Under the pieces are notes generated by a model. The model was given only the letters and a program-made list of their open reading frames with translations, had not been told where the DNA came from and did not search any database. From a candidate division WOR-3 bacterium (lineage in GTDB: Bacteria; Hydrothermota; Tepidihabitantia; B3-TA06), in the NCBI GenBank assembly GCA_965649265.1, contig CBFGKC010000006.1:114975-178974 (forward strand): DNA of 64,000 bases. Direction: 5' to 3'. Shown here one piece after another: positions 21,289 to 41,866 of the stretch. Within the stretch, counting starts at the first letter, position 1. Every line of letters begins with the position of its first letter. The translations under genes and the position numbers were made by a program.

Positions 21289-21289
21289 A

Positions 21290-22435: not shown

Positions 22436-22436
22436 G

Positions 22437-24547: not shown

Positions 24548-24576
24548 TCGAAAATAGTTTTCGTTGACTAACTCTT

Positions 24577-25538: not shown

Positions 25539-25578
25539 TATAATCTCCTTAAGTTATGTTAGTTATAATAACAAATAC

Positions 25579-25607
25579 TTGACAATTCGGTGATTCTTTA
25601 GCATAAT
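25579..25607 (+). promoter_or_regulatory. sigma70-like promoter (TTGACA-17-CATAAT) for 25631..26005
   Basis: ttgaca is at 25579..25584 and cataat at 25602..25607. An AGGAGGA Shine-Dalgarno site is followed by the GTG at 25631. Confidence 0.5.
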
Positions 25608-25630
25608 TATACGGACTATAGGAGGATGCA

Positions 25631-26005: not shown

Positions 26006-26006
26006 A

Positions 26007-26630
26007 TCAATTTCCGCTCGTTCGGAAGTACACCTTGAAATCGCTCCAGTCCTTGGGTGTCTGGAGAGGAGGAAATGTGTCAATTTCTTTTGTATCTGTA
26101 CTGTCAACAGGTAAGTGGGGGAGAAAGATTGTTTCGGCCGCCACGTCTTTCCAATTTGATATATACCAGTAGTTGCCCCGTTTTATAATCTCGAGCTTCA
26201 TTCCACCTGCAAGGGTTTCGTAGCCGTCGATGGCTGTAAGAATCAGGTAGTTTGCGTCAAGGTAGGCCATGGTATCGTTTGCGGAGAAAGAAGTAGTGTC
26301 CATTTGAAGCAGAAGGGGGGGGATCTGTCTGGACGTGGCGAGCTGGTTGAACATCTTCTGGGTGAGCCTTGATTCGGCCGAGTCCTCCCACGGGGTATAC
26401 GCGGTTCCTCTTGTGGAATCCTCGGGGTTGAACTTGAAGCTGAAGGTATCCAGACACAGAAAGAATTTTTCGAAATCAAGCGTGTTGTAGGAATCCACAA
26501 GATTGTGAATGACGGCCATGGAATCAATGGGAGTCAATTCCCTTGCATAGTCGCGGGGGTCAAAAAACTCGCAGCCAGCCGCCAGAAGTACTAAAATAAA
26601 ACCCAAAATCACGCAAAAGAACTTTTTCAC
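26007..26630 (-). CDS. Hypothetical lipoprotein
   Basis: The signal peptide ends in a lipobox (LVLLAAGC). The product is 207 aa with no recognisable domain. Confidence 0.5.
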   Translation of the reverse strand: MKKFFCVILGFILVLLAAGCEFFDPRDYARELTPIDSMAVIHNLVDSYNTLDFEKFFLCLDTFSFKFNPEDSTRGTAYTPWEDSAESRLTQKMFNQLATSRQIPPLLLQMDTTSFSANDTMAYLDANYLILTAIDGYETLAGGMKLEIIKRGNYWYISNWKDVAAETIFLPHLPVDSTDTKEIDTFPPLQTPKDWSDFKVYFRTSGN

Positions 26631-26684
26631 GGTAACTCCTTGTTATTCAAATTTCGATTCGTCTGCGGTTCATACGAGGTGAGT

Positions 26685-28460
26685 CTAAAAAGAACCGTAG
26701 ATCGACAAAGAAGCTTCGAGTGGTGCCTCATAGTCGCTTCTGATAAACTTGAAACCGCCGCTTATGGTCAGATACGGCCACGGGTAGTAGTTTGCCTCAA
26801 TGCCTGCAAAATGGCTGGACTGTGTCAGCGCTTGCCCGTCGGAAGGGAATAGCTTTTGTTTGAGTCCCACGAAACCGGTGATTGTCAACCACTGTCTGGA
26901 CCACCAACCGGGTTGATACCATTTTGGAGCCTCCTCTTTTCTCAGGGATATGTAAGAGAGGCTGTAGCGCTGCTCAATCTCGTCGCGAATAGCGCTTTGT
27001 TTGAGGTCGCCGGAAATCATGCGCCAGTTTTCGTATCTCTTCCAACTCACTCTTGCATCAGGTCTCAAGCACTCTTTCGGAAAAAGAGTCAATTCAAAAA
27101 TATCGGACCAGGTTCTATCGGCGCGGTTGTTGGAAGAGTCTGTATAATATTCGGTCCAGTCAAAAGAAAGACTGGCAGAATTCGCAATGGACGAAAAACT
27201 CAGTATATTAAGATCGCAGTCCCATGCAGCCTGGCTTGAACGGCGAAGGTTTGAACTTGCAGCATAGGCCGGTCTTACATAGTGCGTGCGAGTAACAGAA
27301 TGGTTGAGCTTGAAGTTTGTCGTAAAGTCGGTCCAGAGGTTGAGGGAGGTGGAGAGGTTTGCCTTTTCCGTGAACTTGTCATGGTCCAGATTGTTGAGGG
27401 TATCGGGCGTGTCAAAGCGTTCCAAAGAAATGGTGTGGGAGAAATACATGGATCCGGGAGATAGGGGGCGGGCCTCGCTGCCTGTGCTTCTGGCGTAGGA
27501 AGGTCTTCTCGTGAAATTGTGGTTTATTGTGCTGGTGAATGTGTTAAGTGTTTTGTTGTAATCGTAGTAACTTTCACTTTGGTCGTGCAAGGTGTTGTCA
27601 GTAGAGAAAAGAAGGCGCAGGGAAGTATACCGCAAAACCTGGTAAAGCATGGTTGCGTCAAGATTGCGTTCGGTTTCCTTGTAGCTGGAACTCATGAAGG
27701 AATTGTTCACGAGCGTATCGATTGAATAGTTCGCGGAAAAATCAAGTTTAATACGCGGAGATAATGAAAGGGTATCTCTGATCCAGGCAAGAGCGCCCAG
27801 CTCGTCATAATCCGAAAAACCCCTTGCTTCGCGCTTGCCGAATGATGCTCCCGAAAGGAAGCCGCTTTTAAAAAACGGCAGCGATGACAAGGAAATTTCA
27901 AAGGTGTCTCCCTTATCGCTCCAGTTTGAATGAATTTCTCTATTGTGATAAAAACTCAAGGTGCAAGGTGCGGTACGAACCATAAAAAGCGCATAGTCCT
28001 GCATAGTCGTATCGAAAGACCATCCGGCACCCGGTCCGTAAAGAGCGACTCTTTCATTTCCGTAACTGGCTTTGAAGTGTGTATAGAGGAGGTCCTTTGT
28101 GGTTACCGTATTTAAATAAGCGTAGGATGCGTGGCGTTCGTATCCTTCCGTACCGTCGGACTCGGTGGTAAGGGTTTTGGAACCATTAATTCCTGTGGTC
28201 AGGGAAAACCAGTCAACGGGACGATATGTGAGATCGACGACGCCGTAGTTAATCCTGTTAAGATTCTTGGAAAGCGAGTCCCAGTTGGAGGAACTCCACT
28301 GGCTCAGGGATACTCCTAACTGGCTGGAAAGCATGCGCTCAAAGTATGCACTTTCCCAAAACCCTCTGGTCAAGACGGTATTGTATCCGGAACTTTGAAC
28401 TATTACCGTGTCTGCGTTGAAGGCGCTAGGCAATAATATCAATAAGCTTAACATAATCAC
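26685..28460 (-). CDS. Putative outer-membrane beta-barrel protein
   Basis: It has an N-terminal signal (MIMLSLLILLPSAFNA). Amphipathic beta strands alternate throughout. It ends in Phe (SLSIYGSF), as is typical of OMP barrels. Its start overlaps the 3' end of rsmA. Confidence 0.4.
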   Translation of the reverse strand: MIMLSLLILLPSAFNADTVIVQSSGYNTVLTRGFWESAYFERMLSSQLGVSLSQWSSSNWDSLSKNLNRINYGVVDLTYRPVDWFSLTTGINGSKTLTTESDGTEGYERHASYAYLNTVTTKDLLYTHFKASYGNERVALYGPGAGWSFDTTMQDYALFMVRTAPCTLSFYHNREIHSNWSDKGDTFEISLSSLPFFKSGFLSGASFGKREARGFSDYDELGALAWIRDTLSLSPRIKLDFSANYSIDTLVNNSFMSSSYKETERNLDATMLYQVLRYTSLRLLFSTDNTLHDQSESYYDYNKTLNTFTSTINHNFTRRPSYARSTGSEARPLSPGSMYFSHTISLERFDTPDTLNNLDHDKFTEKANLSTSLNLWTDFTTNFKLNHSVTRTHYVRPAYAASSNLRRSSQAAWDCDLNILSFSSIANSASLSFDWTEYYTDSSNNRADRTWSDIFELTLFPKECLRPDARVSWKRYENWRMISGDLKQSAIRDEIEQRYSLSYISLRKEEAPKWYQPGWWSRQWLTITGFVGLKQKLFPSDGQALTQSSHFAGIEANYYPWPYLTISGGFKFIRSDYEAPLEASLSIYGSF

Positions 28461-29301
28461 CTGGAGAAAGTTCTTGCGGTCTTACATTTGACAAATGTCC
28501 GGTATTTTCGATAACCATTGCCGGGGAGGGTACACCGATCATTTTCAGGTTATTGGCGAGGGTTTTTCGCCTGTGAGCGAAACACTGCCTGACAAGCCTA
28601 GAGAAGGTTGCGGGGTCGTCGGGCCACAAGGGCTTTTCCAGCGGTTCGACTTTTATCGTTATCGAACGAACCTTGGGCACGGGCGCAAACGCGCGCGGGT
28701 CAATCTCAAAGAGTTTCTGGGTTTTCAGGAAAGCCTGCGCGACCACGGAAAGAGCCGAATAGTCATGAGAACCAAGCTGGGCCGTCAACCGCTCGGCAAA
28801 CTCCGCCTGAACCGTAAGCACGGCTTTCTTCCAGAATTTCCTCCTGTCGAGCAGCCAGAAGAGTATCTCCGCCGACAGGTGATACGGAAGATTTCCCAGT
28901 ACCCCGTCCACACATCCATAGCGATCAATATCAAGTTCTCTGACATCCGAAAGGAAAAGCTCGAGATTCTTGTGGAGGTCGGCAAGAACCCGGAGAGTCG
29001 GGAAGCATGTCTCGTCCACTTCCACCGCTACTATTCTCGATACCCTGTCGACAATCAAGCGGGTCAGCTCGCCGGTTCCCGCACCTATCTCGATTACCGT
29101 ATCTTCTTTTTTTGCGCCAAGACTGTCAACGATTCTTTCACCCACCTCTTTCCATCGCAAGAAGTGCTGACCCAGGCGCTTCTTGGGGTGAACATGGATA
29201 ATACCCCCATCTAATTTACTGCGTAAATTAGATGGGGACCCGCTATCCACGGGCACGGTTCTGGTACTTGAATCTCCGTGCAAGGTTTTCCTCTTACCCA
29301 A
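28426..29301 (-). CDS. rsmA: 16S rRNA (adenine1518-N6/adenine1519-N6)-dimethyltransferase
   Basis: The KsgA motifs are present (LGQHFL, VIEIGAGTGELT, LGNLPYHLSAEIL). The ORF has an N-terminal extension of about 40 aa, so the true start may be internal. Confidence 0.8.
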   Translation of the reverse strand: MGKRKTLHGDSSTRTVPVDSGSPSNLRSKLDGGIIHVHPKKRLGQHFLRWKEVGERIVDSLGAKKEDTVIEIGAGTGELTRLIVDRVSRIVAVEVDETCFPTLRVLADLHKNLELFLSDVRELDIDRYGCVDGVLGNLPYHLSAEILFWLLDRRKFWKKAVLTVQAEFAERLTAQLGSHDYSALSVVAQAFLKTQKLFEIDPRAFAPVPKVRSITIKVEPLEKPLWPDDPATFSRLVRQCFAHRRKTLANNLKMIGVPSPAMVIENTGHLSNVRPQELSPGDYVKLIDIIA

Positions 29302-30046
29302 GGAACAGCTCCTTGCCGTTGCGTTCGGTAAGTGCCGCTATATCCTCAGCAGGTTTGACTAGAATTTCGGCCGCCTTCTCCACAACATATCGGACATATG
29401 CGGGTTCGTTACGTTCCCGGCGATGGGGTTCGGGCGTCAGGTAGGGACAATCGGTCTCCACTAGAAGCCGCTCGAGTGGTGCATTGCCTAGCCAGCGTCG
29501 GGTTCTCAGAGCGTCATAAGTTATGGTTCCGTTCAGACCGAGGTAGAAGCCGAGTTCGACTATTCTGTCCACCTGATTCGAATCGGCGGACACCGAATGG
29601 AACACACCCCAGTAGTAGCCGATTTCCTCTACCGTTCGTATGGTATCGTCCATCGCCTCCCTGGTGTGAATAACTATCGGTAGCTTAACGGACTCGGCGA
29701 GTTCTATCTGCTCGGCAAACACCCGGCGCTGGACGTCGCGCGGGGAGAGGTCCCTGTAGAAATCTAACCCTATTTCTCCAATGGCCTTGACCTTCTCGTG
29801 TCTTGTCAATTCCTCAAGTCTGATTAAATAGTCAGGAGGTGTGTTACGGGAGTCGTGAGGATGATAACCCACGGCAACCCATACCCCGTCGTGTCTTTCC
29901 GCGAAGCCAATGGCATCCTCGCACGATCGCAGGTCCCAGCCCACCTCAAGCATGAGCGTGACACCCTCCCCCCTGGCCCGTTCTAAGACTCTCTCCCTGT
30001 CATTAGCGAAACGTTTGTGGCATATATGGGTGTGGGTATCGAACAT
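29294..30046 (-). CDS. tatD: TatD-family metal-dependent hydrolase/DNase
   Basis: It starts MFDTHTHICH and carries the conserved His/Asp/Glu residues of TatD (LMLEVGWD, AIGEIGLDFY, IVIHTREA, LVETDCPYL). It overlaps rsmA by 8 nt. Confidence 0.8.
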   Translation of the reverse strand: MFDTHTHICHKRFANDRERVLERARGEGVTLMLEVGWDLRSCEDAIGFAERHDGVWVAVGYHPHDSRNTPPDYLIRLEELTRHEKVKAIGEIGLDFYRDLSPRDVQRRVFAEQIELAESVKLPIVIHTREAMDDTIRTVEEIGYYWGVFHSVSADSNQVDRIVELGFYLGLNGTITYDALRTRRWLGNAPLERLLVETDCPYLTPEPHRRERNEPAYVRYVVEKAAEILVKPAEDIAALTERNGKELFLG

Positions 30047-30062
30047 CTTCCCCCTTCATTCC

Positions 30063-30386
30063 TTAAGTCAGTCTTGAACCCGGTTCCGCTTCCTTGTCCA
30101 TCGTTGCAAGGATAATCTTTCCCTCGCTTGTCGCTGCAAGAAGCATTCCCTGCGACTCTATTCCTCTGATTACCGCAGGTTCAAGATTGGCGACCACTAT
30201 AATTTGTTTGTCAAGGAGTTCCTCAGGCGCATAATGCTGGGCTATACCCGCTACAAGCTGACGTTCTTCGATGCCCACGGTGATTTTCAACTTCAGGAGC
30301 TTGTCAGCGCCTTCAACTCGTTCCGCCGCGAGTACTTTTGCGACTCTCAGATCTACCTTCCTGAAATCATCAATGGAGATGGCCAA
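30063..30386 (-). CDS. csaA: tRNA-binding (Myf/EMAP-type, CsaA-like) domain protein
   Basis: The sequence FRKVDLRVAKVLAAERVEGADKLLKLKITVGIEERQLVAGIAQHYAPEELLDKQIIVVANLEPAVIRG matches the OB-fold tRNA-binding domain of CsaA and the MetG C-terminus. Confidence 0.7.
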   Translation of the reverse strand: MAISIDDFRKVDLRVAKVLAAERVEGADKLLKLKITVGIEERQLVAGIAQHYAPEELLDKQIIVVANLEPAVIRGIESQGMLLAATSEGKIILATMDKEAEPGSRLT

Positions 30387-30489
30387 TTCTCCTCCTTGAA
30401 TTAATTTTTAGTGTAGGATACTCATGAGACTCGTTCTGTCAACGATATGAATTTTTTCGCGTAAAGAAATTGGCAATAATTGGCCGGTT

Positions 30490-32526
30490 TTAATTAACCA
30501 GGATAATCTTTCTTATGGATATTTCGTCGGTAGTTAATGTTCTTAAGAAGTATACGCCGGTTGAAAGGTTTTGAGGCCAGTGTATTTCCATTTCACCGTT
30601 AATTACTTGCAGTGGAAGGATTTCTTCTATCCTTCTGCCGCCAATATCGTAGAGTTCCATTCTGGCGAGCGTCCGGTAGGGCAGATTGAGTTTGAACGGC
30701 ACGCGGCTGTCCATTACCACGGGAAGGCTAAGGAGCCTGGAAACGGCACTGTCACGGGGCAGTATTTGTTCCTCGATGCTCAGTCTCAAGACCGGTTTGG
30801 CAGCAACAGGCTTGCACCTGCGGAACATTGCATCGATGGTGTTGCTGTCTGCAGCGTAAGATAAAAGAGTAATCTCATCGACGATTCCCTCTACAGAGTG
30901 GAGCTTATTGTTCTGACTGCCGACAAAGAAAGGCCAGTCTTGGTTTTGGTCTTTACCGGGGCGGCCGACCCAGATAGAATCCTGCAATACTGAATTTCGG
31001 TAGAAACGAATTATTTCCCCGTCATATGTAGCCGCCAGAAACATCCAATGATCAAGATTCTCCTGCGGATCCCCGGTCAAACGAAAGAAAGACTTCGATC
31101 GCGATTCGGTTGTGGTCCAGAGCGTGTCGTGCAAGAACGCAAGGTCCTCCGGCAGCAAGGGCTCGGAACAGAACGAAACGAATCCGGCTCTGTAATCTTC
31201 GAAAGCCGCGGCTTTTTCGAGATCGAATTTGATGAGACTTGCGTTGCCCGATTCCCAGACGTACTTACCGTCAAAATCCAGACCCTGAGAAGAGCCGGCG
31301 TTTCTGTATCGTCCTAAAATCTTCGGCTGGCCGGTGGCAAGAGAGGTCTTTTCGTCAACGATGTATGTGTAATGATTGACTCCCCAGGTGGAAATAAGAA
31401 GGCGTGACGTATCACCAAACGGAGCAAAACAGCATGCGGATAAGCTGTCTTGGTTGATAGAGAACGTACCGATGATGTTCGCGGAATGCGTTTCGTATGA
31501 TTTATGATAATCGATCGCGTAAATCATATTGGATTTGAAATCCGAGGCCCACAAGATATCGGATACCGAATCGTATGCCAGTCCTGACGTATGTTTGGCC
31601 TCGGGCGGCATATCGAACCAGCCGGTGCGTGACAGGTCGGCAGGATTGATCCTCCATACTTGAGAGGGTTGATTCGGATCGAGGTCAACGGCAAGAAAAA
31701 GCTCTTCCCCGACCGATGTAAGCCCCTGGGGAATAAATTTTTCTGAAACAAGGGGGCTTCCTACCCTTTCCCAGCCGAATGGAGGCATCATGCACGTAGA
31801 GGTTGTTGCCGCGTGGGATACCGAAAAGCAGAGATTCCCGCTTTGGAGCCAAATTTTGAAAAAATCGCTCACTTCGGCAATGATTCGCTGCGAAGCGGAG
31901 TATGCAAGGTTGCTCGAAGTGTCAAGCTTGAGCCATAAGGCGACTGTAAATGAATCCCTCAACGAATTCACGGGAATATCTGCCATTGCATAAGTACCTT
32001 TAGAAAAACACAAAGCCGAGCCCGATGAAAATGTCAAATCTTCCCTGTTTTGCCATCCTCCGCCGTCCCCTTCCTTCCAGGATGTTCCGTTAAGAGTAAG
32101 ACAACCGTTATGTTCCTCATAGTATGTCGAGTTCCCCAGGCCTTCGTCGCAGTGGAAAACCCAGCCTTGACCCGGGTCGACGGATATTTTTGTAAATACC
32201 GAATCGAAGTTTGGCCCAGTGTTTTCTTCATTTGCATAATATAAATCAAGGAAATCTTCGCCGGGTAAGAGAGTATCCATCTTGAGCCAGATGCTGGTTG
32301 AATTGGTTTGAATAGTATCCTCAATCCAGTACGGGATAAGATTATTATGGTGATAAAAGCGCAGCGAGTACGCCTCCGGATCGAGCTTTCCCTGGTCAAT
32401 TAGGTCGCGGGTATCCAGATTTAAATGAACCTGAACGTCTACAGCCGGGGTATCCGCAGGATTGCTTACTGTAATCTTGCGCTCGTATATATTCGACGCG
32501 AAGAGGTATAAAATCAAAAGCCCCAC
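30490..32526 (-). CDS. Secreted LamG/concanavalin-like domain protein with T9SS CTD
   Basis: A LamG-like stretch is present (SFTVALWLKLDTSS...IIAEVSDFFKIWLQSGNLCF). The C-terminus is GVYFLRTLTTDEISIRKIILVN. Confidence 0.5.
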   Translation of the reverse strand: MGLLILYLFASNIYERKITVSNPADTPAVDVQVHLNLDTRDLIDQGKLDPEAYSLRFYHHNNLIPYWIEDTIQTNSTSIWLKMDTLLPGEDFLDLYYANEENTGPNFDSVFTKISVDPGQGWVFHCDEGLGNSTYYEEHNGCLTLNGTSWKEGDGGGWQNREDLTFSSGSALCFSKGTYAMADIPVNSLRDSFTVALWLKLDTSSNLAYSASQRIIAEVSDFFKIWLQSGNLCFSVSHAATTSTCMMPPFGWERVGSPLVSEKFIPQGLTSVGEELFLAVDLDPNQPSQVWRINPADLSRTGWFDMPPEAKHTSGLAYDSVSDILWASDFKSNMIYAIDYHKSYETHSANIIGTFSINQDSLSACCFAPFGDTSRLLISTWGVNHYTYIVDEKTSLATGQPKILGRYRNAGSSQGLDFDGKYVWESGNASLIKFDLEKAAAFEDYRAGFVSFCSEPLLPEDLAFLHDTLWTTTESRSKSFFRLTGDPQENLDHWMFLAATYDGEIIRFYRNSVLQDSIWVGRPGKDQNQDWPFFVGSQNNKLHSVEGIVDEITLLSYAADSNTIDAMFRRCKPVAAKPVLRLSIEEQILPRDSAVSRLLSLPVVMDSRVPFKLNLPYRTLARMELYDIGGRRIEEILPLQVINGEMEIHWPQNLSTGVYFLRTLTTDEISIRKIILVN

Positions 32527-32566
32527 GCGCTCCTGCCTTTCTTAGAGTGAGTGGGGCTTTCGAATA

Positions 32567-32929
32567 TCATGAACTCATGAAGTTTTGATAGATAATCCCG
32601 TAGCGCGTCCTGACCGGTTCGTTGGAGCCCATTCTTGCGACCCAGCCGTTCTGAACGACTTGCCAGGTGCCGGGCTTGACGCCCTTTGATTCCACGAACG
32701 CGTTCACGGCCTCGGGGCCCATGATGCTATTCTTGCCCATCAGCGCCGTTATCTCGGCGTACTTATCCAGGGTGATGCCCTCGATAGGCGCCCACATGGG
32801 GTCATTGAAGTCCACCGGCTGCGAAGCCTTCTGCTGATCTTCCGCGGCCTTTGCCTGCATATCCTGGGATTTTTTTATCGCATCGTTGGCGTTCTTCATC
32901 ATGTTGTCGAAATCCTTAAACATGCCCAT
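32567..32929 (-). CDS. Hypothetical protein
   Basis: It is a 120-aa ORF with good coding appearance and no recognisable domain. Confidence 0.4.
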   Translation of the reverse strand: MGMFKDFDNMMKNANDAIKKSQDMQAKAAEDQQKASQPVDFNDPMWAPIEGITLDKYAEITALMGKNSIMGPEAVNAFVESKGVKPGTWQVVQNGWVARMGSNEPVRTRYGIIYQNFMSS

Positions 32930-33373
32930 GGTTCCTCCTTTGGTTTTGGCATACGTTGGCAGTATAGACAGCCGGTTAAAGTTGTCAATACGGAATTTTC
33001 CGGGTGTACTTAGGTAGAATAGAGGATGTCCTCCTTATCGAGAGGGGGTACTACCCCTCTTCGTTCTTGGATGAGGCTGCGCTTCAAGGAAGCGCCGGGT
33101 GAGGGTTCCTCACTAACTGGAAGGGGGGAGGGGGAATCACTTTCTTCCTACCTTGGTGGAGGGGGCGGGGCGACCTCGTAGGGGCTTACGTGGATGCTTC
33201 TGCATCCGCTTCGCGTTAGGTGAGCCCGCAAAAAAACGGGCTGACCTGAAGGTCGGCTCCTGCACTTTGCGAGGCTGCGCCCGTTAAAGAATTTGATATT
33301 GCAGAGTAAACCTAATTGCTTTGATAATCCTCGATTATCTTCCCATGATCGAAACAAATGTCACCCCAAGTAA

Positions 33374-33793
33374 TTACTTCGTAATTTCTTGGGGACCCCG
33401 ATTGATGTAATCACGGATGATTGTTGAGTGATCAAACGTAATCTGTTCCGGTAATGTATCCAGCTTAAAGACGCGGGCGAGCTTCGCGTCGTCGCCTTCG
33501 CGTAACACACCCTTGCCGTCGGCGGTGAAGACGACGGATACGGTATGGAAGCGGGGATCGCGCGAGGGTTCGGAGTAGACGTGGAACTGCTCGAGATTGT
33601 CCAAATCGAGTCCGGTCTCCTCCTTCATCTCCCTGCGCACGGCCTGCTCGACCGTCTCGCCTATCTCGACGAACCCGCCCGGCAGCGCCCACCCCGGGGG
33701 AGGGTAGCGTCTCTCGACAAGGATAATCCCGCCTTCGTACCGGATGATGCAGTCAACGGTCAGGTATGGGGTTTTGGGCGGCGACCAGGTCAT
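33374..33793 (-). CDS. NUDIX hydrolase
   Basis: The Nudix box is present (LPGGFVEIGETVEQAVRREMKEETGL). Confidence 0.8.
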   Translation of the reverse strand: MTWSPPKTPYLTVDCIIRYEGGIILVERRYPPPGWALPGGFVEIGETVEQAVRREMKEETGLDLDNLEQFHVYSEPSRDPRFHTVSVVFTADGKGVLREGDDAKLARVFKLDTLPEQITFDHSTIIRDYINRGPQEITK

Positions 33794-33810
33794 ACGCTGT
33801 CAGTAATGCA

Positions 33811-33957
33811 ACAATCGTTTTGTTGCCGCAATGACACGGTCATTGCACTCCACACGGACTTGTTGCCGCAATGACACGGTCATCGCACTCCACACGGACT
33901 TGTTGCCGCAATGACGCGGTTATCGCACTCCACACAGACTTTGTTGCCGCAATGGCG
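33811..33957. repeat. Tandem 40-bp repeat x3.6, each unit with an 8-bp-stem hairpin (GCAATGAC-acg-GTCATTGC)
   Basis: The units tgttgccgcaatgacacggtcattgcactccacacggact sit at 33811, 33851 and 33891, with a partial fourth. The copies degenerate from 5' to 3'. It lies between the polA stop and the NUDIX start. Confidence 0.7.
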
Positions 33958-33998
33958 CGGTCATAATCGATCTGCGTAGTTCTTGAATCAAATAATCC

Positions 33999-36530
33999 CT
34001 AATGCGCTTCGCCCCAGTTATCGCCCGAACCTATCTCGACCTCCAGGGGCACCGAGAGCTTCCACGCCGATTCCATGTCGCGCTTGACTATCTCCATCGC
34101 GCGGTCTACCTTTTTTTCAGGAACCTCGAACAGAAGCTCGTCGTGTATCTGCAGGAGCATTCCTGGCTCTATGCCTTCGTCCGTAAGACTCTTTTCGACC
34201 TTTATCATCGCGGCCTTGATGATGTCGGCTGCGGAGCCTTGCACGGGCGCGTTGATGATCGCGCGCTCGGCGACGTCGGCGCGATTGGGAACCTGCGGCA
34301 CGCGGCGCACACGTCCCGCAATCGTGGAGACGTAGCCTTTCTCCACCGCCTCCTGCACAATGCGCTCCCGCCAGGCCGATACGCCCGGGAACGACGCGAG
34401 GTAGTGATCGATGAAGTGCGCGGCCTCCTCGGTCGAGACGCCCATGCGGCGGGCGAAGCCGTAGGGACCCATGCCGTAGATGATTCCGTAGTTGATGGCC
34501 TTCGACATGCGGCGGTGGTCCGCCGTGATCTCCGATTCTTTTACCCCGAACACGCGCATGGCGGTCTCGGTGTGCACGTCGCGGTGGGCGTGGAAGATTT
34601 CTGTAAGCGCATCGTCGGCTGCGATATCGGCAAGCACGCGAAGCTCTATCTGGGAGTAGTCCGCCGACAAAAGCTTGTTGCCTGCAGCGGCCACGAAGCC
34701 CTTGCGCATCGCCGGCCCGCGCTCGCCCCTTATCGGAATATTTTGCAGGTTAGGGTTGGCGGTCGAAAGCCTGCCGGTCGAAGCGCCGGTCTGGTCGAAG
34801 GTGGTGTGAATCCTCGAATCGGAATCCACGAGCGTGACGAGCGGCCTCAGATACGTTGAAAGCAACTTGGAGAACTCCCGCCACTCGAGAATCTTCGGGA
34901 TGACCGGGTGCGCGTCCACCATCTCCTCAAGCACGTCCGCCGAGGTCGAATAGCCCGTCTTCGTGCGCCTGCGCGGCCTGATGCCTAAATCCTTGAAGAG
35001 AATTTGCTGCAGCTGCTTAGGCGAGCCTATGGTGAACTTCGTTCCGGCAAGCTCGTAAATATCGGTCTCGAGTTTTGCGAGTTCGTCCTCCCACTCGTCC
35101 GTCAACTTACCGAAATACTCAGTATCGAGCCTGACTCCGCGCTCTTCCATCTTCGCAAGAACAGGGATGAGGGGCACCTCCATCTCTTCGTAGACCTTGA
35201 GTGCGCTCACTTCCTTTAGCTCCATCTCGTAATGCTCGCCCGCATCGTGCATGAGGCTTACGGCGTCGGCCGGCGATGCCAGCGGCCTTCCTGCCGCGTG
35301 CACGAGAACGCGCTCGAGCGTTCTCAGGGAGAGATCGGAGTTTTCCACGAACGCCATAAGATGCAAATCCCAAAGCTTGCCTTTGATCTCAAACCCCAGC
35401 TTGATCAGCGGTTTGGCGTCCCAGAGAATCTTGGGAAAAGCTTTGTTCGAAAGCAACTCCCGAACTTGTTCCTCCTTGACCTCGGCAATCGTGAATCCGT
35501 CGGATGCTAGAACCCTTTCGTAGCATCCTCCGATGCAGCCTTTCTCGTCGGAAAACATGTCGGCCTGACCCGTTTTCTCCTCGAACAGGAAGGAAAGGGG
35601 GTCACCCTTCTTCGGCGCAAACTCAGCCTTCGAAATCTCGAGCGTTCCCTTCTTCTTGTCCTTCGGTTTCATGTGCGAAAGGCGCGAGGTGAAGCCGAGC
35701 TCGTTGTAGACGGCCTGCAGCGCCCCTTCGTCCTCGCTTCCGCAACGCAGGTCCTCATCCTTGATCTTCAAGGGTACGTCCTTGTGAAGCTGAACGAGTT
35801 CGTAAGAGAGCGTTGCTATCTGTCTGTGTTCTGCCAGCTTCTCGTCCTTTTCGAGCGCGGTCGCGAGGTTACCGTACTTCTCGATAAGAGCGAGCGCACG
35901 TTTTGGACCGATGCCGGGAACGCCCGGTATGCCGTCCGACGAGTCGCCCATGAGTGCGAGGAGGTCCGTTACCTTTTCGGGCGTCACTCCCATCTTCGTC
36001 TTCACTCCCTTTGAGTCGAACTCCTCGTCCTTGTAGGTGTCGTAAACGACTACATTATCTCCCACCAGTTGCGTCAAATCCTTGTCGCCCGAGACAATCA
36101 CGATCTTCGTGAACTTTTCCCTGAAACGCTCCGTTATCGTGGCCATGATATCGTCGGCCTCGTAACCCTCGAGTAAAAAGACGGGCAGGCCCTGCATCTT
36201 GGCGATTTCAGCGATCATGGGAACCTGCCAGATAAGCTCGTCTGGCGTCTCGGGTCTGTCCTTCTTGTAGTCTCGGAACTTTTCGTGCCTGAATACTTCT
36301 CTTCCTGCGTCGAACGTGATGACAATGGAATCCGTCGGGTAGCGTTCCCTTATCTTGTCCATGGCCTGAAGGAACCCGTAAATCGCCGAGGTGTTGCGAC
36401 CTTTTGTGTCTCTCAGGGGGTTGCGGATAAGGGCGAAGTACGAGCGGTAGGCTATGGAGTGGCCATCAATCAGGACAAGTATCACGCCCCCCTCCCAGCC
36501 TTCCTCGCCCTCCTCGCCCTCCTCAGGCAC
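33999..36530 (-). CDS. polA: DNA polymerase I
   Basis: The 5'-3' exonuclease N-terminus is visible (LVLIDGHSIAYRSYFAL). Polymerase motifs A (DYSQIELRVLA), B (RRMSKAINYGIIYGM) and C (QIHDELLFEV) are present. The acidic MPEEGEEGEEGWEGG extension is probably upstream of the true GTG start near 36485. Confidence 0.85.
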   Translation of the reverse strand: MPEEGEEGEEGWEGGVILVLIDGHSIAYRSYFALIRNPLRDTKGRNTSAIYGFLQAMDKIRERYPTDSIVITFDAGREVFRHEKFRDYKKDRPETPDELIWQVPMIAEIAKMQGLPVFLLEGYEADDIMATITERFREKFTKIVIVSGDKDLTQLVGDNVVVYDTYKDEEFDSKGVKTKMGVTPEKVTDLLALMGDSSDGIPGVPGIGPKRALALIEKYGNLATALEKDEKLAEHRQIATLSYELVQLHKDVPLKIKDEDLRCGSEDEGALQAVYNELGFTSRLSHMKPKDKKKGTLEISKAEFAPKKGDPLSFLFEEKTGQADMFSDEKGCIGGCYERVLASDGFTIAEVKEEQVRELLSNKAFPKILWDAKPLIKLGFEIKGKLWDLHLMAFVENSDLSLRTLERVLVHAAGRPLASPADAVSLMHDAGEHYEMELKEVSALKVYEEMEVPLIPVLAKMEERGVRLDTEYFGKLTDEWEDELAKLETDIYELAGTKFTIGSPKQLQQILFKDLGIRPRRRTKTGYSTSADVLEEMVDAHPVIPKILEWREFSKLLSTYLRPLVTLVDSDSRIHTTFDQTGASTGRLSTANPNLQNIPIRGERGPAMRKGFVAAAGNKLLSADYSQIELRVLADIAADDALTEIFHAHRDVHTETAMRVFGVKESEITADHRRMSKAINYGIIYGMGPYGFARRMGVSTEEAAHFIDHYLASFPGVSAWRERIVQEAVEKGYVSTIAGRVRRVPQVPNRADVAERAIINAPVQGSAADIIKAAMIKVEKSLTDEGIEPGMLLQIHDELLFEVPEKKVDRAMEIVKRDMESAWKLSVPLEVEIGSGDNWGEAH

Positions 36531-36591
36531 ACCCTTCTCAGCCTCATCTGTCTGATTAAAGGACGTTTCAATCGAGGGAGTCTTGCTCGAT

Positions 36592-37350
36592 TCATGGTGT
36601 ACTCTGCCGCTTTTCTTTTGCTTGTTGAAGAGACTTTTTCACCAGCTCAGTTGCTCTGTACAGCGATTCGAAGGTGCCCGCATCCGTCCACCAGCCCGAA
36701 AGCTTTGCCCAGCGCATCTGGCCCCAGGAGATATAGGTGTTGTTCACGTCCGTTATCTCGAGTTCATTTCTTCCTGATGGCGAGAGCCCTTTAACGATCT
36801 CGAACACACGTTTGTCGTACATGTAGATTCCGGTCACAGCCAGGTTGGATTCCGGTTTCTTCGGCTTCTCCACAATCCTGGCGACGTGTGCACCTTCCAC
36901 GGTCGCAACGCCGAAGCGCTGGGCGTCCTTCACTTCCTTCAGAAGAATCATCGCGCCGGTTCCGGCGGCCTCGAACTTCTTGATGTAGGGGAGGAGGGGG
37001 GCGGAAAAAATGTTGTCTCCGAGAATCACCACAACCGGCTGGCCCTCCGAGAAATCCTCGGCGAGCGATAGCGCTTCCGCGATGCCGCCGTGACCGTCCT
37101 GGTAGGTGTAGTGCAGACCCTTGATGCCGAACTTCCTTCCGTTTCCCAAAAGCCTCAAAAAGTCACCCGCGAATTCGCCGCCCGTGACCAAAAGTATCTC
37201 CTCGATTCCGGCCTCGACTAATTTCTCAATAGGATAAAGCACCATCGGTTTGTCGTAGACAGGCAAAAGGTGTTTGTTGGTCACCTCAGTCAGCGGCGCG
37301 AGCCTGGTGCCCATGCCGCCCGCAAGTATCACGCCTTTCTTCAATTTCAT
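36592..37350 (-). CDS. Sugar-phosphate nucleotidyltransferase, RmlA-like (glucose-1-phosphate thymidylyl/uridylyltransferase type)
   Basis: The sequence GVILAGGMGTRLAPLTEVTNKHLLPVYDKPMVLYPIEKL closely follows the RmlA N-terminal signature. Confidence 0.7.
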   Translation of the reverse strand: MKLKKGVILAGGMGTRLAPLTEVTNKHLLPVYDKPMVLYPIEKLVEAGIEEILLVTGGEFAGDFLRLLGNGRKFGIKGLHYTYQDGHGGIAEALSLAEDFSEGQPVVVILGDNIFSAPLLPYIKKFEAAGTGAMILLKEVKDAQRFGVATVEGAHVARIVEKPKKPESNLAVTGIYMYDKRVFEIVKGLSPSGRNELEITDVNNTYISWGQMRWAKLSGWWTDAGTFESLYRATELVKKSLQQAKEKRQSTP

Positions 37351-37409
37351 TCGCTATCTTACAGCAGGAGAGGGGAGGAGTCAAGGGAGTAAATGATTAC
37401 ACGCAAAGT

Positions 37410-37438
37410 TTGACACTATAAGACGGTTTTCTTATAAT
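37410..37438 (+). promoter_or_regulatory. Consensus sigma70 promoter (TTGACA-17-TATAAT)
   Basis: ttgaca is at 37410..37415 and tataat at 37433..37438. An AAAGGAGGAAAAG Shine-Dalgarno site is followed by the ATG at 37472. Confidence 0.6.
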
Positions 37439-37471
37439 GCAAACAGAGGATACAAGCCAAAGGAGGAAAAG

Positions 37472-38683
37472 ATGAAGCGTTGCTTTCTCGCAGTTGTGTT
37501 CGCAGTGCTTTTGTTCGTTTATTGCTCTCTGCCGAAGTATCACGGCGAGCCTCTCTGGACTTTTGAGGCCAAAGGGAGGATATGTTCCTCGGCTCTCGGC
37601 CAGGATGGAACTATTTATTTTACCATGAATTACAAAGATACCGCAAGTCTTTATGCGCTGAACCCCGACGGCGACATTAAATGGAAGTACACGTCAATTA
37701 GCACAAAGGATACTTTGAGGAGCTTTGATTTCCTGTCGATAAGAAGCGACGGGACAATCTATGTCGGCGGCGAGAGTGTTCTTTTCGCGCTGAATCCGGA
37801 CGGAAGTCTCTTATGGAGTTATGAAGATGTTTGTCAGGTCGGCGGAATGCTAATCGGGACTGAAGGGGCGTTGTACATTCTCGACAGCGGTATTCTCATC
37901 GCATTAAACGAGAGTGGAGAAAAGCTATGGGAATCTGATTTGGACATTATTCTTCTGGGATGCATTTCAGCCGATGGATCGGTATATGTTTATGAGAGCA
38001 GCCTTAGTTCTCCGATTGAAAATGCTGTTTCCTTGTATCCAGACGGCACTTTAAAGTGGCGGCGTGATTGCACAATTGGATTTCCTTGTCCCTATCCTAG
38101 TCCAGCTGTTGGCGAGGACGGAACAATCTACGATGCACAGATGTATCTCATGGCCATTTCGGACAATGGGGATTGCTTATGGAATTACAAGGATTGTTTT
38201 AATCCGTCAATAGGCTCAGATGAAAGCATATATGCCGTTGGGTATTACAACAATGCCAAAAAGAACAAAGTTATAGCGTTTGACGATTCGGGTAAAGTGG
38301 CATGGGAATACAAGATTCCGGGGGAAAAAAGAACAGTGGGTTATATTTCGCCTGTGGTTGGTGCAGACGGGACGATCTATGTGGGTGAATGTTTTTACTT
38401 CTTTTGGGGTTGGACTCCTGAAGAAGACTACTATCTTTACGCGCTGGATAATACCGGCAGGCTTTTGTGGACATATAGTATTGACGGGTTTCTCTCGAAT
38501 CCTCCTCTGCTTGCCCAGGACGGGACGCTCTACTTATGCACGAATTCTTCACTCGAAAGCGACGGTGCTAATTCAAAAGTAAAAATAACCGCCCTTCAAA
38601 CCGAGTCAATGGGTCTTGCCTCCTCCTCCTGGCCGCGGGCCGGGCACGACAACCAGAACACGGGCCGCGCGAGTGGGCATTAG
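37472..38683 (+). CDS. Lipoprotein with PQQ-like beta-propeller repeats
   Basis: The signal peptide has a lipobox (LLFVYCS). The repeated theme DGTIYF/V...LYALNPDGxxKW recurs. The C-terminus has a WPRAGHDNQNTG motif. A tandem paralog lies at 38767..39960. Confidence 0.55.
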   Translation: MKRCFLAVVFAVLLFVYCSLPKYHGEPLWTFEAKGRICSSALGQDGTIYFTMNYKDTASLYALNPDGDIKWKYTSISTKDTLRSFDFLSIRSDGTIYVGGESVLFALNPDGSLLWSYEDVCQVGGMLIGTEGALYILDSGILIALNESGEKLWESDLDIILLGCISADGSVYVYESSLSSPIENAVSLYPDGTLKWRRDCTIGFPCPYPSPAVGEDGTIYDAQMYLMAISDNGDCLWNYKDCFNPSIGSDESIYAVGYYNNAKKNKVIAFDDSGKVAWEYKIPGEKRTVGYISPVVGADGTIYVGECFYFFWGWTPEEDYYLYALDNTGRLLWTYSIDGFLSNPPLLAQDGTLYLCTNSSLESDGANSKVKITALQTESMGLASSSWPRAGHDNQNTGRASGH

Positions 38684-38692
38684 GAAAGTACT

Positions 38693-38720
38693 TGACAGTG
38701 TAGAATTTCCTTTTATTATT
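38693..38720 (+). promoter_or_regulatory. sigma70-like promoter (TTGACA-16-TATTAT)
   Basis: ttgaca is at 38693..38698 and tattat at 38715..38720. It lies upstream of a TAGGAGGATAAC Shine-Dalgarno site and the ATG at 38767. Confidence 0.45.
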
Positions 38721-38766
38721 TATATGTGGTCAAACCCTGCGAGGCGGGAAAATCTAGGAGGATAAC

Positions 38767-39960
38767 ATGAAGCGTGTGTACGTTATCTCCATAGCCGCGG
38801 CAGTCGTCCTTACAACCTGTTCCTTTCCTGAATACAAAGGTGAAGCACTCTGGACTTACGAGGTCTCAGGACACCTGGGTTCCACAGCGCTGGGCAACGA
38901 CGGTACAATCTATTTTACCGTCGACTACGTCTCCGATACTTTTAATGTTGACAGCGCCAGCCTTGTTGCCTTGAATCCTGACGGCTCACTGAAGTGGAGT
39001 CGTACCGAGAAATACGATGCCGGAACCTACAACGGAATGGGGGCCTTATCCATCGGTTCGGACGGCACCCTTTACATCGCAGGCAAGTTACTTTATGCGT
39101 TATCTCCCGAGGACAGCGTTCTATGGATGTATGAGCCGGAACAATACATATACCAGATTCTTGTCGGTGCGGATGGCACCCTTTATATCCTTGTCAATCG
39201 CACCCTCTGTGCTGTAACCGGCGAGGGGCAGCTTTTGTGGAAATCTCCCTTGAACCTGTGGAGACTCTACGGCGTGACTTCCGACGGAACCGTCTACGCC
39301 GCGGAAATAGATAATACTTTCTCCAATATTGCGGTGAACGCGGACGGGTCTCTCAAGTGGCGCTACGACCGGGGAACGTCGAGCAACTGTCAGTATGCGG
39401 CAATCGGCGAAGACGGCTCAACCTACTGCAGCGGTTTTGCGCTTAAGCCTGACGGAAGCCTGAAGTGGAAGTACGCCGGAATGTACGAGCCTTCTTTAGG
39501 AACGGATGACAACGTCTGCTCAGGCTCCTACATAGAAGAAAATAAGAGAGGGATCATTACCCTTGATACGAGCGGAAATCTTCTCTGGGAATACGAGATT
39601 CCGGGAAAGAGCTATGTTTCGGGGTTGAACCCGCCTGCTATCGGCGCCGACGGAACAATCTACATCGGTGAGTATTACATATCTATGGGCATAGGAAGCG
39701 ACCCCGGCGTGGTCCCTCACGATTATTACCTCTACGCGGTTGACAAGACCGGAAAATCGCTGTGGAAGTATAATACCGACGGCCAGGCTGCAGGCTCTCC
39801 GCTTATCGCACCCGACGGGACGCTTTACCTCTGGTCCGAAACGTATTTGTCTGAGCTCGGCTACAAACTTCACGCGATAAAGACGGAGTCCATGGGGCTT
39901 GCCGCCTCTTCATGGCCCCGCCCTGGTCACGACAACCGGAATACGGGCTGCGTGCAATAA
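38767..39960 (+). CDS. Lipoprotein with PQQ-like beta-propeller repeats (tandem paralog)
   Basis: It has a lipobox (VLTTCS). The same DGTIYF / LVALNPDGSLKW repeat theme is present. The C-terminus reads SWPRPGHDNRNTGCVQ. Confidence 0.55.
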   Translation: MKRVYVISIAAAVVLTTCSFPEYKGEALWTYEVSGHLGSTALGNDGTIYFTVDYVSDTFNVDSASLVALNPDGSLKWSRTEKYDAGTYNGMGALSIGSDGTLYIAGKLLYALSPEDSVLWMYEPEQYIYQILVGADGTLYILVNRTLCAVTGEGQLLWKSPLNLWRLYGVTSDGTVYAAEIDNTFSNIAVNADGSLKWRYDRGTSSNCQYAAIGEDGSTYCSGFALKPDGSLKWKYAGMYEPSLGTDDNVCSGSYIEENKRGIITLDTSGNLLWEYEIPGKSYVSGLNPPAIGADGTIYIGEYYISMGIGSDPGVVPHDYYLYAVDKTGKSLWKYNTDGQAAGSPLIAPDGTLYLWSETYLSELGYKLHAIKTESMGLAASSWPRPGHDNRNTGCVQ

Positions 39961-40018
39961 TCTTTTCCGGTCCACTTGGAGGTTTAATACGGTCGCGCGG
40001 CAGTACCCGGTATTTTAG

Positions 40019-40047
40019 TTGACAGATCGCGAAGCGCACCTTATAAT
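40019..40047 (+). promoter_or_regulatory. Consensus sigma70 promoter (TTGACA-17-TATAAT) abutting the start codon
   Basis: ttgaca is at 40019..40024 and tataat at 40042..40047. The ATG at 40053 sits only 5 nt after the -10 element, which makes this a leaderless candidate. Confidence 0.5.
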
Positions 40048-40052
40048 GAAGG

Positions 40053-41186
40053 ATGAAGCGTTTGCTTATCCTTCTGGTCGCGGCGGCGTTGCTTGCAGGT
40101 TGCGCGTCCCAGTCGGTAAAAAAAGGTAAAACCGGGCTCGAACTGCTCTATATCGCGGACGTACCGGCCGACGATGCCGGGTGTTCGGCGCTCTACTCTA
40201 CAATCAAGGGGTTCGAAAATCCCCTCGTCGTAGTTGATGATCCAACGTTCTCCACTATCTCCGATCTTGCCTGGTGGGAGGGGCAAAGGGAGCTTTTTCT
40301 CCTCGACTCTCTGGGTGTGGGACTTTTTTTCCTTCCTTCCTCCTGGATGCTTCTCGGTGCGGACAAGCTCAAGGAACTCTCGAACGAGGCCGATTTCTTC
40401 ATGCCAGCGATGAATCTTGCCGACAACTCGCTGCGCTACATTTTGCCTCGCTACATGATACGCAGGCAGGGTTCGTATCGTCTGGCCTTCTCTGCGGCGG
40501 TCAGACCGGAGAAACAAGCGTTTCTCATTAAAGGAGAGAATCTTCTTAATGTGGATTCGCTTCTGCCCGTGACCGCTACTTACCTGGCCATGCAGTCCGA
40601 TTTCTTCTTCTTTTTCAATGATGATTCGACCGGAAAGGTTTCATCGGGGATCAACTCCATTCCGCGTGGTGCCGGTTCTCGTCAGCTTTCCTTAAGCTTC
40701 CGCAGCACGACGGAATTCAAGCTTAACCAGAAGCCCTTGAGACTTGCGGCCGCGTCTGCGACCAATCCATGCGCGCTGTGGCAGCAGAAGGCTGATTCCA
40801 TCGACTTGGAGCTTCTGGGCGCGAGTTCTGAAGGCGTTTCCACGGACTCGCTGCGGCAGCTGGCAGCGAAGGCTCTTGGCTCAAGCGAGAGCGTAATGGT
40901 TTATCTCGGCGATGGGTTCATAAAAGATTCGCTGCCCGCCGGTCAAATAACATTCGGCAAGATGCGCAGAGTTCTCGCCCCCGAGATTTTCGTCGCAGTT
41001 CCAAGACAGGATTTCGTCAACGCTTTCCCGCGAGAGGGGGAGGGGGTATCTCAAAAAATAAAGGAAGTGATTTTACCTTCATCTCTTTTCATCGCCGATG
41101 AGGCTTTAGGAAGCACTCACGCGAAGCCGACAGGATTGACTTCGGCTTCGCTGGTTCGTAAGATGTTTTCAAAGGAGGAGAAGTGA
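40053..41186 (+). CDS. Hypothetical lipoprotein
   Basis: The signal peptide has a lipobox (LLVAAALLAGCAS). The product is 377 aa. Its stop overlaps the next gene's start (41183..41186). Confidence 0.5.
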   Translation: MKRLLILLVAAALLAGCASQSVKKGKTGLELLYIADVPADDAGCSALYSTIKGFENPLVVVDDPTFSTISDLAWWEGQRELFLLDSLGVGLFFLPSSWMLLGADKLKELSNEADFFMPAMNLADNSLRYILPRYMIRRQGSYRLAFSAAVRPEKQAFLIKGENLLNVDSLLPVTATYLAMQSDFFFFFNDDSTGKVSSGINSIPRGAGSRQLSLSFRSTTEFKLNQKPLRLAAASATNPCALWQQKADSIDLELLGASSEGVSTDSLRQLAAKALGSSESVMVYLGDGFIKDSLPAGQITFGKMRRVLAPEIFVAVPRQDFVNAFPREGEGVSQKIKEVILPSSLFIADEALGSTHAKPTGLTSASLVRKMFSKEEK

Positions 41187-41866
41187 CAGCTCAAGAAGCA
41201 ACCATCAAAAAGGAACAAAAAACACGTGGTATTCGCTGGGGCAGGCTTATCTGGACGCTGTTCGTCGTCCTCTACCTCATAAACTTCGCAAAGAACCTCT
41301 TCGGCGACGTCGCTCAGAATGAAGCCGCAATACCCATAATCTACTTCATCGTATGGCTTTGCTGGCTCGGAGTGGAGTTTTACCTTGGGGCGCTCTTTTT
41401 CCAGTCGAGCCTTGTGATGAACTTTAATCCATGGCTCAAGGCCGGTTTTGCCCTTTTCTTTTACGCCATGCAGGGGCTTGCTCCATGGGACGCATTCGCA
41501 AGCACACATATCCGCTTCGCATACCCCGTGTTCAACATCCTCGGGCTTCTCCTGTTCGGTCTCGGGATTTTTATACGCATCTGGTCGCTTATAGTCTTTA
41601 AACGCGCTAAAAACCCGAGGGACGTTCTGAAAACGAGGCCGTGGCTGATGTCGAGGCACCCGCGTTACATCGGCATGCTTCTCGTGATGTTTGCAATACC
41701 TCTCGTGTTCTTTTCGCCGTGGGCCATGCTTGCGACCGTCGTAATCGGGCTGCCCTTGTGGTATCTTGAAACGAGATTCGAGGAGAAAAAACTTGCGGAA
41801 GAATGGGGCGAAACTTACAGGGATTATTGCGCACGCACTCCCCTGGCTCCTCGTCTTAAGCCTTAG
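41183..41866 (+). CDS. Isoprenylcysteine carboxyl methyltransferase (ICMT/PEMT) family membrane methyltransferase
   Basis: It has multiple TM segments. The C-terminal motif is RPWLMSRHPRYIGMLL...EEKKLAEEWGETYRDYCARTPLAPRLKP (compare RHPxY...EE..L...FG..Y..Y). Confidence 0.65.
   Translation: MTAQEATIKKEQKTRGIRWGRLIWTLFVVLYLINFAKNLFGDVAQNEAAIPIIYFIVWLCWLGVEFYLGALFFQSSLVMNFNPWLKAGFALFFYAMQGLAPWDAFASTHIRFAYPVFNILGLLLFGLGIFIRIWSLIVFKRAKNPRDVLKTRPWLMSRHPRYIGMLLVMFAIPLVFFSPWAMLATVVIGLPLWYLETRFEEKKLAEEWGETYRDYCARTPLAPRLKP

Follow-up and report, generated by a model that had tools for sequence, protein, structure and literature searches.

Between polA and a NUDIX hydrolase gene in the genome of a candidate division WOR-3 bacterium, a 40-bp sequence containing an inverted repeat is repeated head to tail, which raises the question of what kind of element this array is and from where its unit was derived. 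The DNA analyzed is a stretch of 64,000 nucleotides, here called the window, for which a first-pass annotation had proposed either a stack of terminator or attenuator hairpins or a recently amplified REP-like element.

The array is real. Tandem Repeats Finder (TRF) places it at 33820-33964, with a period of 40, 3.6 copies, 93% matches, no indels and a score of 239, and reports this one array only at the polA-NUDIX spacer. The earlier description of a 40-bp unit in about 3.5 head-to-tail copies is thereby upheld; the span of 33811-33957 given for it pointed to the right place, but started about 9 nt too early and ended 7 nt short. Likewise, the progressive decay attributed to the copies is reflected in their identity to unit 1, which in a repeat search is 100, 98, 90 and 92% for units 1 to 4. 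The hairpin with an 8-bp stem assigned to every unit, here called P3, was found in part of them. Unit 1 forms it perfectly (33828-33846; -12.1 kcal/mol on the + strand and -12.7 on the - strand) and unit 2 with one A.C mismatch on the + strand that corresponds to a G.U pair on the - strand (-7.9 and -12.4 kcal/mol, respectively), while units 3 and 4 lose it in the MFE folds, leaving two of the four units with the hairpin. The loop is GCG in units 3 and 4, as in the family consensus, and ACG in units 1 and 2; a 1-nt insertion at the junction sets unit 4 at a spacing of 41. The linker within the array is 8 nt long and invariant (ACACGGAC). Since 40 is not divisible by 3, the array encodes no repeated peptide, and the RNA fold of the whole spacer is no better than that of shuffled sequences on either strand (z=-1.62 and -0.81). 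Within the 64-kb window the 19-nt palindrome GCAATGAC-ACG-GTCATTGC occurs at the array site only, with no match at up to three mismatches in 100 dinucleotide-preserving shuffles, and the 16-mer TTGTTGCCGCAATGAC is absent elsewhere, such shuffles giving essentially none.

The naming of the flanking genes as polA and a NUDIX hydrolase gene was confirmed by Pfam, and both lie on the minus strand, a point previously missed. On the transcribed strand polA is the upstream gene, and the order is polA stop codon, 34 nt, array, full element, 9 nt and NUDIX ATG (Table 1). One NCBI protein (P0001) matches the polA product with 100% identity, and a group of homologues, several of which are named candidate division WOR-3, shares 67-81% identity with it, the nearest of these at 81%. 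Look-ups by exact sequence gave no record for either the polA or the NUDIX product of the window. The NUDIX protein, whose N-terminus (ATGACCTGG...) is conserved in relatives, displays only sub-threshold matches in NCBIfam, to NadM-Nudix and MutT; NadM-type ADP-ribose pyrophosphatases are the closest, but below threshold.

Table 1. Features of the polA-NUDIX locus in the window (listed along the transcribed strand) and copies of element A and of other hairpin repeats in further loci
Feature	Position	Strand	Description
polA	33999..36530	-	DNA polymerase I, 843 aa; Pfam DNA_pol_A and 5'-3' exonuclease domains, E=4.7e-143; stop codon at 33999
GATT-rich stretch	33965..33998	-	directly 3' of the polA stop codon
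Array unit 4	33940..33964	+	truncated after GTCAT; stem degenerate
Array unit 3	33900..33939	+	P3 hairpin not the preferred fold
Array unit 2	33860..33899	+
Array unit 1	33820..33859	+	TTGTTGC + C + P3 hairpin + ACTCC + linker ACACGGAC
Full element A copy	33800..33855	+	P1 5' arm decayed (GTAAT for GGAGT); P2, P3 and P1 3' arm ACTCC
P2 hairpin GCAACAA-TCGTT-TTGTTGC	33808..33826	+	7-bp stem; present once
NUDIX hydrolase gene	33374..33793	-	139 aa; Pfam NUDIX PF00293, E=1.1e-24; downstream gene, ATG at 33793
L001, L003			two contigs of Candidatus Stahlbacteria MAG E44_bin36; element A, single copies
L002			MAG CSMAG_461; element A, single copy
L004, L007, L008			metagenome contigs; element A, single copies, found with a slightly looser pattern
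L011 (polA 74%), L015/16 (73%)			one P3-less copy of element A, TTTGGAGTGCAACGA-GCGTC-TCGTTGC(C)GCAACACTCCATAAA, ending 10-11 nt before the ATG
L012/13 (polA 72%)			one simple, partly decayed hairpin copy of element A
L009/10 (polA 81%), L014 (77%), L017/18 (73%)			unrelated element B, CCCCCTCCCTGGTGGAGGGGG-hairpin-GGGGGAGGGG
L021			spacer with element C, GGGGCCGACC-TTTA-GGTCGGCCC
L019 (polA 70%)			no hairpin repeat in spacer

A promoter scan with a threshold of 9/12 detected no sigma70 promoter in the spacer; below this threshold, a weak sigma70-like match, TTGATT-17-GATTAT (8/12), lies on the minus strand at 33992..33963, in the GATT-rich stretch. Over 24000-43999 of the window canonical sigma70 promoters are enriched (31 found against 14.2±4.3 expected in shuffles), with perfect TTGACA-17-TATAAT sites at 37410 and 40019. 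Terminators composed of a hairpin and a T-run are not enriched over the same range (20 against 23.3 in shuffles), which points to non-canonical termination here. In every lineage the polA stop codon is immediately followed by three to seven short (A/G)GATT(A/G) repeats, such as CACAGATTACACAGATTAAGCGGATTAAG and AAGATTGGAAGATTAAAAGATTTGAAGATT, that recur about every 8-10 nt: at 33965-33998 (-) in the window, 11790-11830 in L011, 12478-12515 in L012, 12470-12530 in L019 and 5385-5410 in L021, and also in L015 and L017. The type of motif is conserved, the spacers being otherwise unalignable. No skew switch was found near 33.8 kb, and the idea of a replication origin or iterons was dropped because there is none at the position of the array.

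The 40-bp unit is part of a larger sequence. It comprises the 3' arm of a second hairpin (P2), one C, the P3 hairpin, the 3' arm of a helix P1 and the 8-nt linker, corresponding to the 3' two-thirds of an element of about 56 nt, TTTGGAGTGCAACAA-N5-TTGTTGCCGCAATGAC-N3-GTCATTGCACTCCATAAA, which we designate element A. Because the unit is a sub-segment of element A, the array is the amplification of a partial element and not an array of an autonomous 40-bp unit; the first-pass annotation had described the unit and overlooked both the larger two-hairpin element and the second hairpin at 33808-33826. In all six copies from other genomes element A reads TTTGGAGTGCAACAA-N5-TTGTTGCCGCAATGAC-N3-GTCATTGCACTCC(A/C)(T/A)AA, and the full copy in the window aligns to these six without gaps, scoring 75 bits (E=3.3e-21) with a covariance model of the full element, R1. 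The sequence has the potential to fold into a Y, that is, a three-way junction with P1 (GGAGT/ACTCC), P2 (GCAACAA/TTGTTGC), P3 (GCAATGAC/GTCATTGC) and one unpaired junction C, or alternatively into a long hairpin, GGAGTGCAA/TTGCACTCC. The same arms are terminal inverted repeats (GGAGTGCAA...TTGCACTCC), extended by TTT/AAA. Single copies of element A fold far better than shuffled sequences on both strands (z=-4.6 to -5.1). With the exception of its 3' arm, P2 lies outside the repeated unit, and a pattern search for it gave one match against none expected. Both P2 and P3 span 19 bp with the form GCAA-N11-TTGC, 20 bp apart, and the P3 copies are 40 bp apart. Three structural variants of element A were distinguished (full, P3-less and simple hairpin), with sizes of 29-57 nt.

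Single copies of element A with more than 90% identity are dispersed in other genomes. A search with TTGTTGCCGCAATGRCRCGGTYAT, restricted to one genome per species, retrieved three single-copy sites, all in Candidatus Stahlbacteria MAGs. L005 and L006, which account for two of the five matches to the pattern in metagenomes, proved to be chance matches inside coding sequence and were discarded. Homology between non-homologous loci is limited to 50-57 nt with 89-98% identity (blastn), and the neighbors of the copies are unrelated: T9SS-tail proteins, nadE, radical SAM, S41 peptidase, TauE and GNAT. In L003 and L008 the copy is found upstream of a CN_hydrolase/NAD_synthase gene. The copies in the window, L001-L004, L007, L008, L011-L013, L015 and L016 are extragenic, between called genes or ORFs, and most copies either directly follow a stop codon or are separated from the next start by hundreds of nt that include other repeats. 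A 139-aa ORF beside the L007 copy is NUDIX-like in length only, being unrelated to NUDIX and probably not a gene. L007 also contains a 59-nt direct repeat (1373-1431 and 14745-14803, 93% identical) that brackets 13.4 kb including the element A copy, and these repeats could be the att-like ends of an island. Three patterns gave no match to element A in viral contigs and blastn against plasmids and phages gave none; a plasmid- or phage-borne origin was accordingly not borne out by these searches.

The gene order NTP-transferase-polA-NUDIX is conserved in relatives, and copy number in related assemblies, which had been named as a check on the first reading, could be determined in the orthologous spacers: these hold at most one copy of element A, and the array is absent from all of them. 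In three lineages the distance between element A and the NUDIX start codon is 9-11 nt. An NJ tree of polA pairs the window with a lineage bearing element B as its sister and places the clade bearing element A elsewhere. Judging by flanks and loop, the copy of L011 and L015 is in the polA sense and that of the window antisense, and in L012 element A is inverted, together with about 30 nt of flank, relative to L011. A target-site duplication is not definable, as the orthologous spacers are filled with A, otherwise filled (B, C) or empty, and too diverged for exact borders. The contig of L020 (ERZ778604 NODE_23461), a close polA relative, ends at 4755, a single base beyond the polA stop codon, which would fit a break of the assembly at a repeat in this spacer.

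Elements B and C are small hairpin repeats as well. Element B (tCCCCCTCCCTGGTGGAGGGGG - variable small hairpin - GGGGGAGGGGa) is present in the window at 33120-33190 (+), about 200 nt downstream of the NUDIX gene, and in other loci at L003 ~6943 (-), L008 456, 1983, 2126 and 2152, L009 4737, L014 3319 and L017 12562; it adjoins element A in L001 (~7780) and has three to four copies in L008. Two copies of element B give sub-threshold matches to Rfam whalefall-1, reaching 20-21.5 bits where the gathering score is 37. The window contains element C (GGGGCCGACC-loop-GGTCGGCCC), in which a GGGGCAC...GTGCCCC hairpin is at times nested, at 49138-49168 and ~33231-33266; further copies lie in L001 at 7459-7489 and in L021 at 5455-5485, and beside element A in L004 and L007. 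Since both elements are dispersed, this spacer, like other long spacers here, is a turnover site for families of small hairpin repeats.

Other repeats were noted in the window. A 64-nt tandem repeat at 51954-52169 is present in 3.3 copies (TRF score 268), with two copies showing 100% identity throughout 88 nt; a relative of it with 81-83% identity is found at 14720-14870, about 37 kb away. Arrays of the 11-nt unit TTTTGTCCAAC are located in two distant spacers at 4678-4727 and 49585-49734 (3.4 copies each, 92% over 50 nt), the second inside a 66-nt duplicated block, and short tandem arrays of CCCCCCGTAACAC and its complement GGGTGTTACGGGG at 48001-48080, 15033-15096 and 58791-58809, and also in L001 at 5925-5994, in a Stahlbacteria MAG. 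At a larger scale, about ten tandem paralogous ORFs of 175-205 aa without a Pfam match (16113-22654, -), some pairs of which share 69-92% DNA identity, lie directly upstream of a gene for a radical SAM/SPASM enzyme (15089-16111, -), and together they could form a multi-substrate maturase cluster.

To what extent element A is abundant and constrained bears on its nature. The R1 model recovers all known copies, the shortened forms and array units 2-3; in the window and related loci, searched over 226 kb and then another 13.5 kb, it detected nothing beyond these. As nothing more is found in these ~240 kb, element A is low-copy, unlike classical REPs, a density that refers to the window and related loci. 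E44_bin36, with at least two copies on different contigs (the strict pattern finds two sites), is the only MAG with more than one. The orthologous copies of L003 and L008 are identical at 56 of 56 positions, in flanks that are 84-92% identical, and the chance of 56 unchanged positions at such identities is about 5e-5 to 9e-3. This very high conservation at low copy number could mean that element A serves the host and is not a selfish or neutral repeat. Among full copies, five of the nine loop and junction columns vary against three of the 40 stem columns (Fisher p=0.003). Pairing holds in 96.8% of all cells, most pairs being invariant. Only one double-sided change was observed, from A-U to G-C in P2 of L011 and L015, a single event, and the covariation test was not significant, no measure exceeding the shuffles. 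Given this weak covariation, the structure rests on pairing potential and not on evolution. Single changes compatible with G.U pairing favor the + strand in three cases and the - strand in two, hence no transcribed strand can be deduced from them.

Several known identities were considered for the repeat and set aside. A CRISPR array had been dismissed at first pass and rightly so: the unit is as long as the period, variable spacers are missing, the 8-nt linker does not vary, and no Cas family is found among the scanned ORFs. Rfam 15 gave no match in the window at gathering thresholds, no meaningful match on 32900-34100 at E<=10 and no match to element A at E<=1 in the six loci carrying it; on the loci bearing B or C nothing was found on element A, the sub-threshold whalefall-1 matches on element B being the only ones. 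Around the ten copies scanned, no promoter-like site was detected at a fixed offset, such as an sRNA gene with its own promoter would have. Resemblance to integron attC, dif/Xer, parS or matS was rejected, the defining core sequences being absent from element A; hammerhead or twister ribozymes and the nadA riboswitch were rejected as well, their core sequences being absent and Rfam giving no match. Pfam, run on 46 of the 61 window ORFs, gave no transposase, RAYT (Y1_Tnp) or integrase; these 46 encode chromosomal housekeeping or surface proteins, and no IS was seen in the related loci examined.

On the best reading, the dispersed single-copy occurrence in relatives makes element A a REP/MITE-like intergenic element rather than a stack of terminators, a CRISPR array or an RNA of a known family. 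We regard it as reasonably probable that the array arose in this lineage through tandem amplification of 40 bp out of a single copy of element A, an intergenic element of WOR-3/Stahlbacteria type. The idea of a recently amplified REP-like element is thus the better of the two proposed at first pass, supported by single copies at non-homologous sites and by no more than one copy in orthologous spacers. Amplification would most likely have occurred by replication slippage or unequal recombination at a hairpin-prone site. The loops, ACG in units 1 and 2 and GCG in units 3 and 4, fit older polA-proximal copies and a NUDIX-proximal pair as the most recent duplication. The extra units are probably neutral, with the outer ones already decaying, and element A itself may persist because its stems are recognized or required in hairpin form, whether in RNA or in single-stranded DNA. 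With neither a strong promoter nor a terminator in the spacer, the array is probably part of the transcript of an NTP-transferase-polA-NUDIX operon. The minus-strand RNA would then carry units 1 and 2 as two stable P3 hairpins (-12.7 and -12.4 kcal/mol) together with P2, ending 9 nt before the NUDIX AUG. In E. coli, an intercistronic REP hairpin can stabilize the message before it and reduce expression of the gene that follows. By analogy, the most likely effect of the array, if it has any, would be that of a REP-like intercistronic hairpin which protects the polA message and damps NUDIX expression, with no role as a terminator.

Other readings have to be weighed against a partial amplification of a REP/MITE-like repeat. 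One of them, possible but rather unlikely, is that element A is a structured RNA or ssDNA motif selected by the host, Y-shaped and low-copy, which a host protein would read, for example as an RNA processing or stability site or as a recombination site, and that the array multiplies P3 to tune NUDIX expression. Low copy density combined with very high conservation (56/56 against 84-92% in the flanks), stems that are kept while loops drift (p=0.003), the one compensatory change from A-U to G-C in P2, the strong folding z-scores of single copies and the distance of 9-11 nt from the NUDIX start codon in three lineages all argue for such a motif. Nevertheless, both orientations relative to transcription occur, G.U against A.C changes carry no strand signal (3 vs 2), the neighbors differ among copies and the spacers of sister lineages hold the unrelated repeats B or C, or none; moreover, there is no Rfam family and no promoter at a fixed offset, and array units 3 and 4 are decaying. 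A more specific version, in which element A is a non-selfish, sequence-constrained, low-copy Y motif read by a host protein (an RNA processing/stability signal or a site for site-specific recombination or inversion) and the array a functional P3 multimer setting the polA:NUDIX expression ratio, is in our view unlikely. If element A were a host-read motif, the inversion of element and flank between L011 and L012 would be programmed and not accidental.

The 19-bp palindromes might instead be double-stranded operators of a dimeric transcription factor, the array forming a phased operator cluster that controls the NUDIX gene, with a possible link to NAD. The outer half-sites shared by P2 and P3 20 bp apart, the P3 spacing of 40 bp, about four helical turns, the sub-threshold proximity of the NUDIX protein to NadM-type ADP-ribose pyrophosphatases and the position of the L003/L008 copies upstream of nadE are in accordance with this reading. 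We consider it improbable, however, given that most copies follow stop codons or sit hundreds of nt from starts, that no consistent -35/-10 partner accompanies them, that the radical SAM and S41 peptidase/TauE contexts have no NAD link, that the symmetric compensatory change is better explained by a hairpin, and that NUDIX orthologues in sister lineages have no site. A terminator or attenuator stack between polA and NUDIX, the other suggestion of the first-pass annotation, seemed plausible from its position between two co-directional genes and from the stability of P2 and of units 1 and 2 on the mRNA strand (-12.7 and -12.4 kcal/mol for the units), and the absence of enrichment of canonical terminators makes non-canonical signals conceivable. 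It did not withstand closer inspection and we judge it very improbable: the stems are followed by GGCAACAA or ACTCCACAC, and by a T/U run on neither strand, a scan for terminators over 33300-34400 gave no site, half of the units lack the hairpin and the whole spacer folds no better than shuffles. In addition, no strong NUDIX promoter lies downstream of the array, so that full termination would silence a conserved gene. There is hardly any likelihood that the array is an RNA antitoxin (ToxI) of a type III toxin-antitoxin-like system, which is suggested by geometry only, that is, 3.6 direct repeats of 40 nt within 30 nt of a 139-aa gene in the same transcriptional unit. That gene encodes a NUDIX hydrolase and not a nuclease of the ToxN/AbiQ type, PADLOC yields only a weak match to a candidate family (PDC-S07, 36 bits), the unit is a fragment of a dispersed element found singly elsewhere, and units are decaying. 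The NUDIX gene is also syntenic with polA in relatives whose orthologues have no array. This reading is effectively refuted.

These results show the intergenic spacers of WOR-3/Stahlbacteria genomes to be mosaics of several hairpin repeat families that replace one another at one site. The definition of element A is of value for annotation, as it avoids mis-calling such arrays as CRISPRs, riboswitches or terminators, and its copies are markers for strain typing and for assembly breaks in uncultured genomes. Should element A prove to be selected by the host, a phylum in which experimental genetics is almost absent would gain a new cis-acting motif.

In comparison with known systems, element A shares with Rho-independent terminators only the presence of stable hairpins downstream of a gene; in contrast to them, it has no U-tract, is equally palindromic on both strands, and belongs to a region in which the canonical pattern is not enriched. 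The array resembles ToxI in that direct repeats of about 40 nt, arranged in tandem, immediately precede a small gene, but that gene is here a conserved housekeeping-type NUDIX, relatives have no array, and the unit is a piece of a dispersed element. The likeness to REPs and BIMEs, the repetitive extragenic palindromes of Enterobacteria and Pseudomonas, which are mobilized by RAYT transposases, is closer. These too are short, imperfect palindromes, strictly intergenic and in either orientation, often just after stop codons or between the genes of an operon, single, clustered or in tandem, with conserved stems and free loops. REPs, however, number hundreds per genome, whereas no extra copy of element A was found in ~240 kb; they have one hairpin instead of two in a Y shape, carry a conserved 5' tetranucleotide of the GTAG type that element A lacks, and are linked to RAYTs, none of which was seen near element A among the window ORFs scanned. 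BIMEs, in turn, alternate Y and Z REPs with defined linkers, unlike the head-to-tail partial units of the array. In the ~240 kb searched, element A thus falls short of the high copy number of REPs proper, and no RAYT association was seen for it in the scanned ORFs. With respect to MITE-like elements (Correia/NEMIS, RUP and BOX), element A is at or below the small end of their sizes, with 29-57 nt, and neither a target-site duplication nor a parent IS was identified, nor a transposase in the scanned window ORFs. In common with them, it has terminal inverted repeats (TTTGGAGTGCAA / TTGCACTCC(AT)AAA), a non-coding body, internal-deletion variants (full, P3-less and simple hairpin), presence and absence at orthologous spacers and clusters with other repeat families. 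The family is absent from Rfam, and no description of these repeats was found in a literature search limited to Stahlbacteria; it appears to be undescribed, although its kind is familiar, that of the small palindromic intergenic repeats resembling REPs and MITEs.
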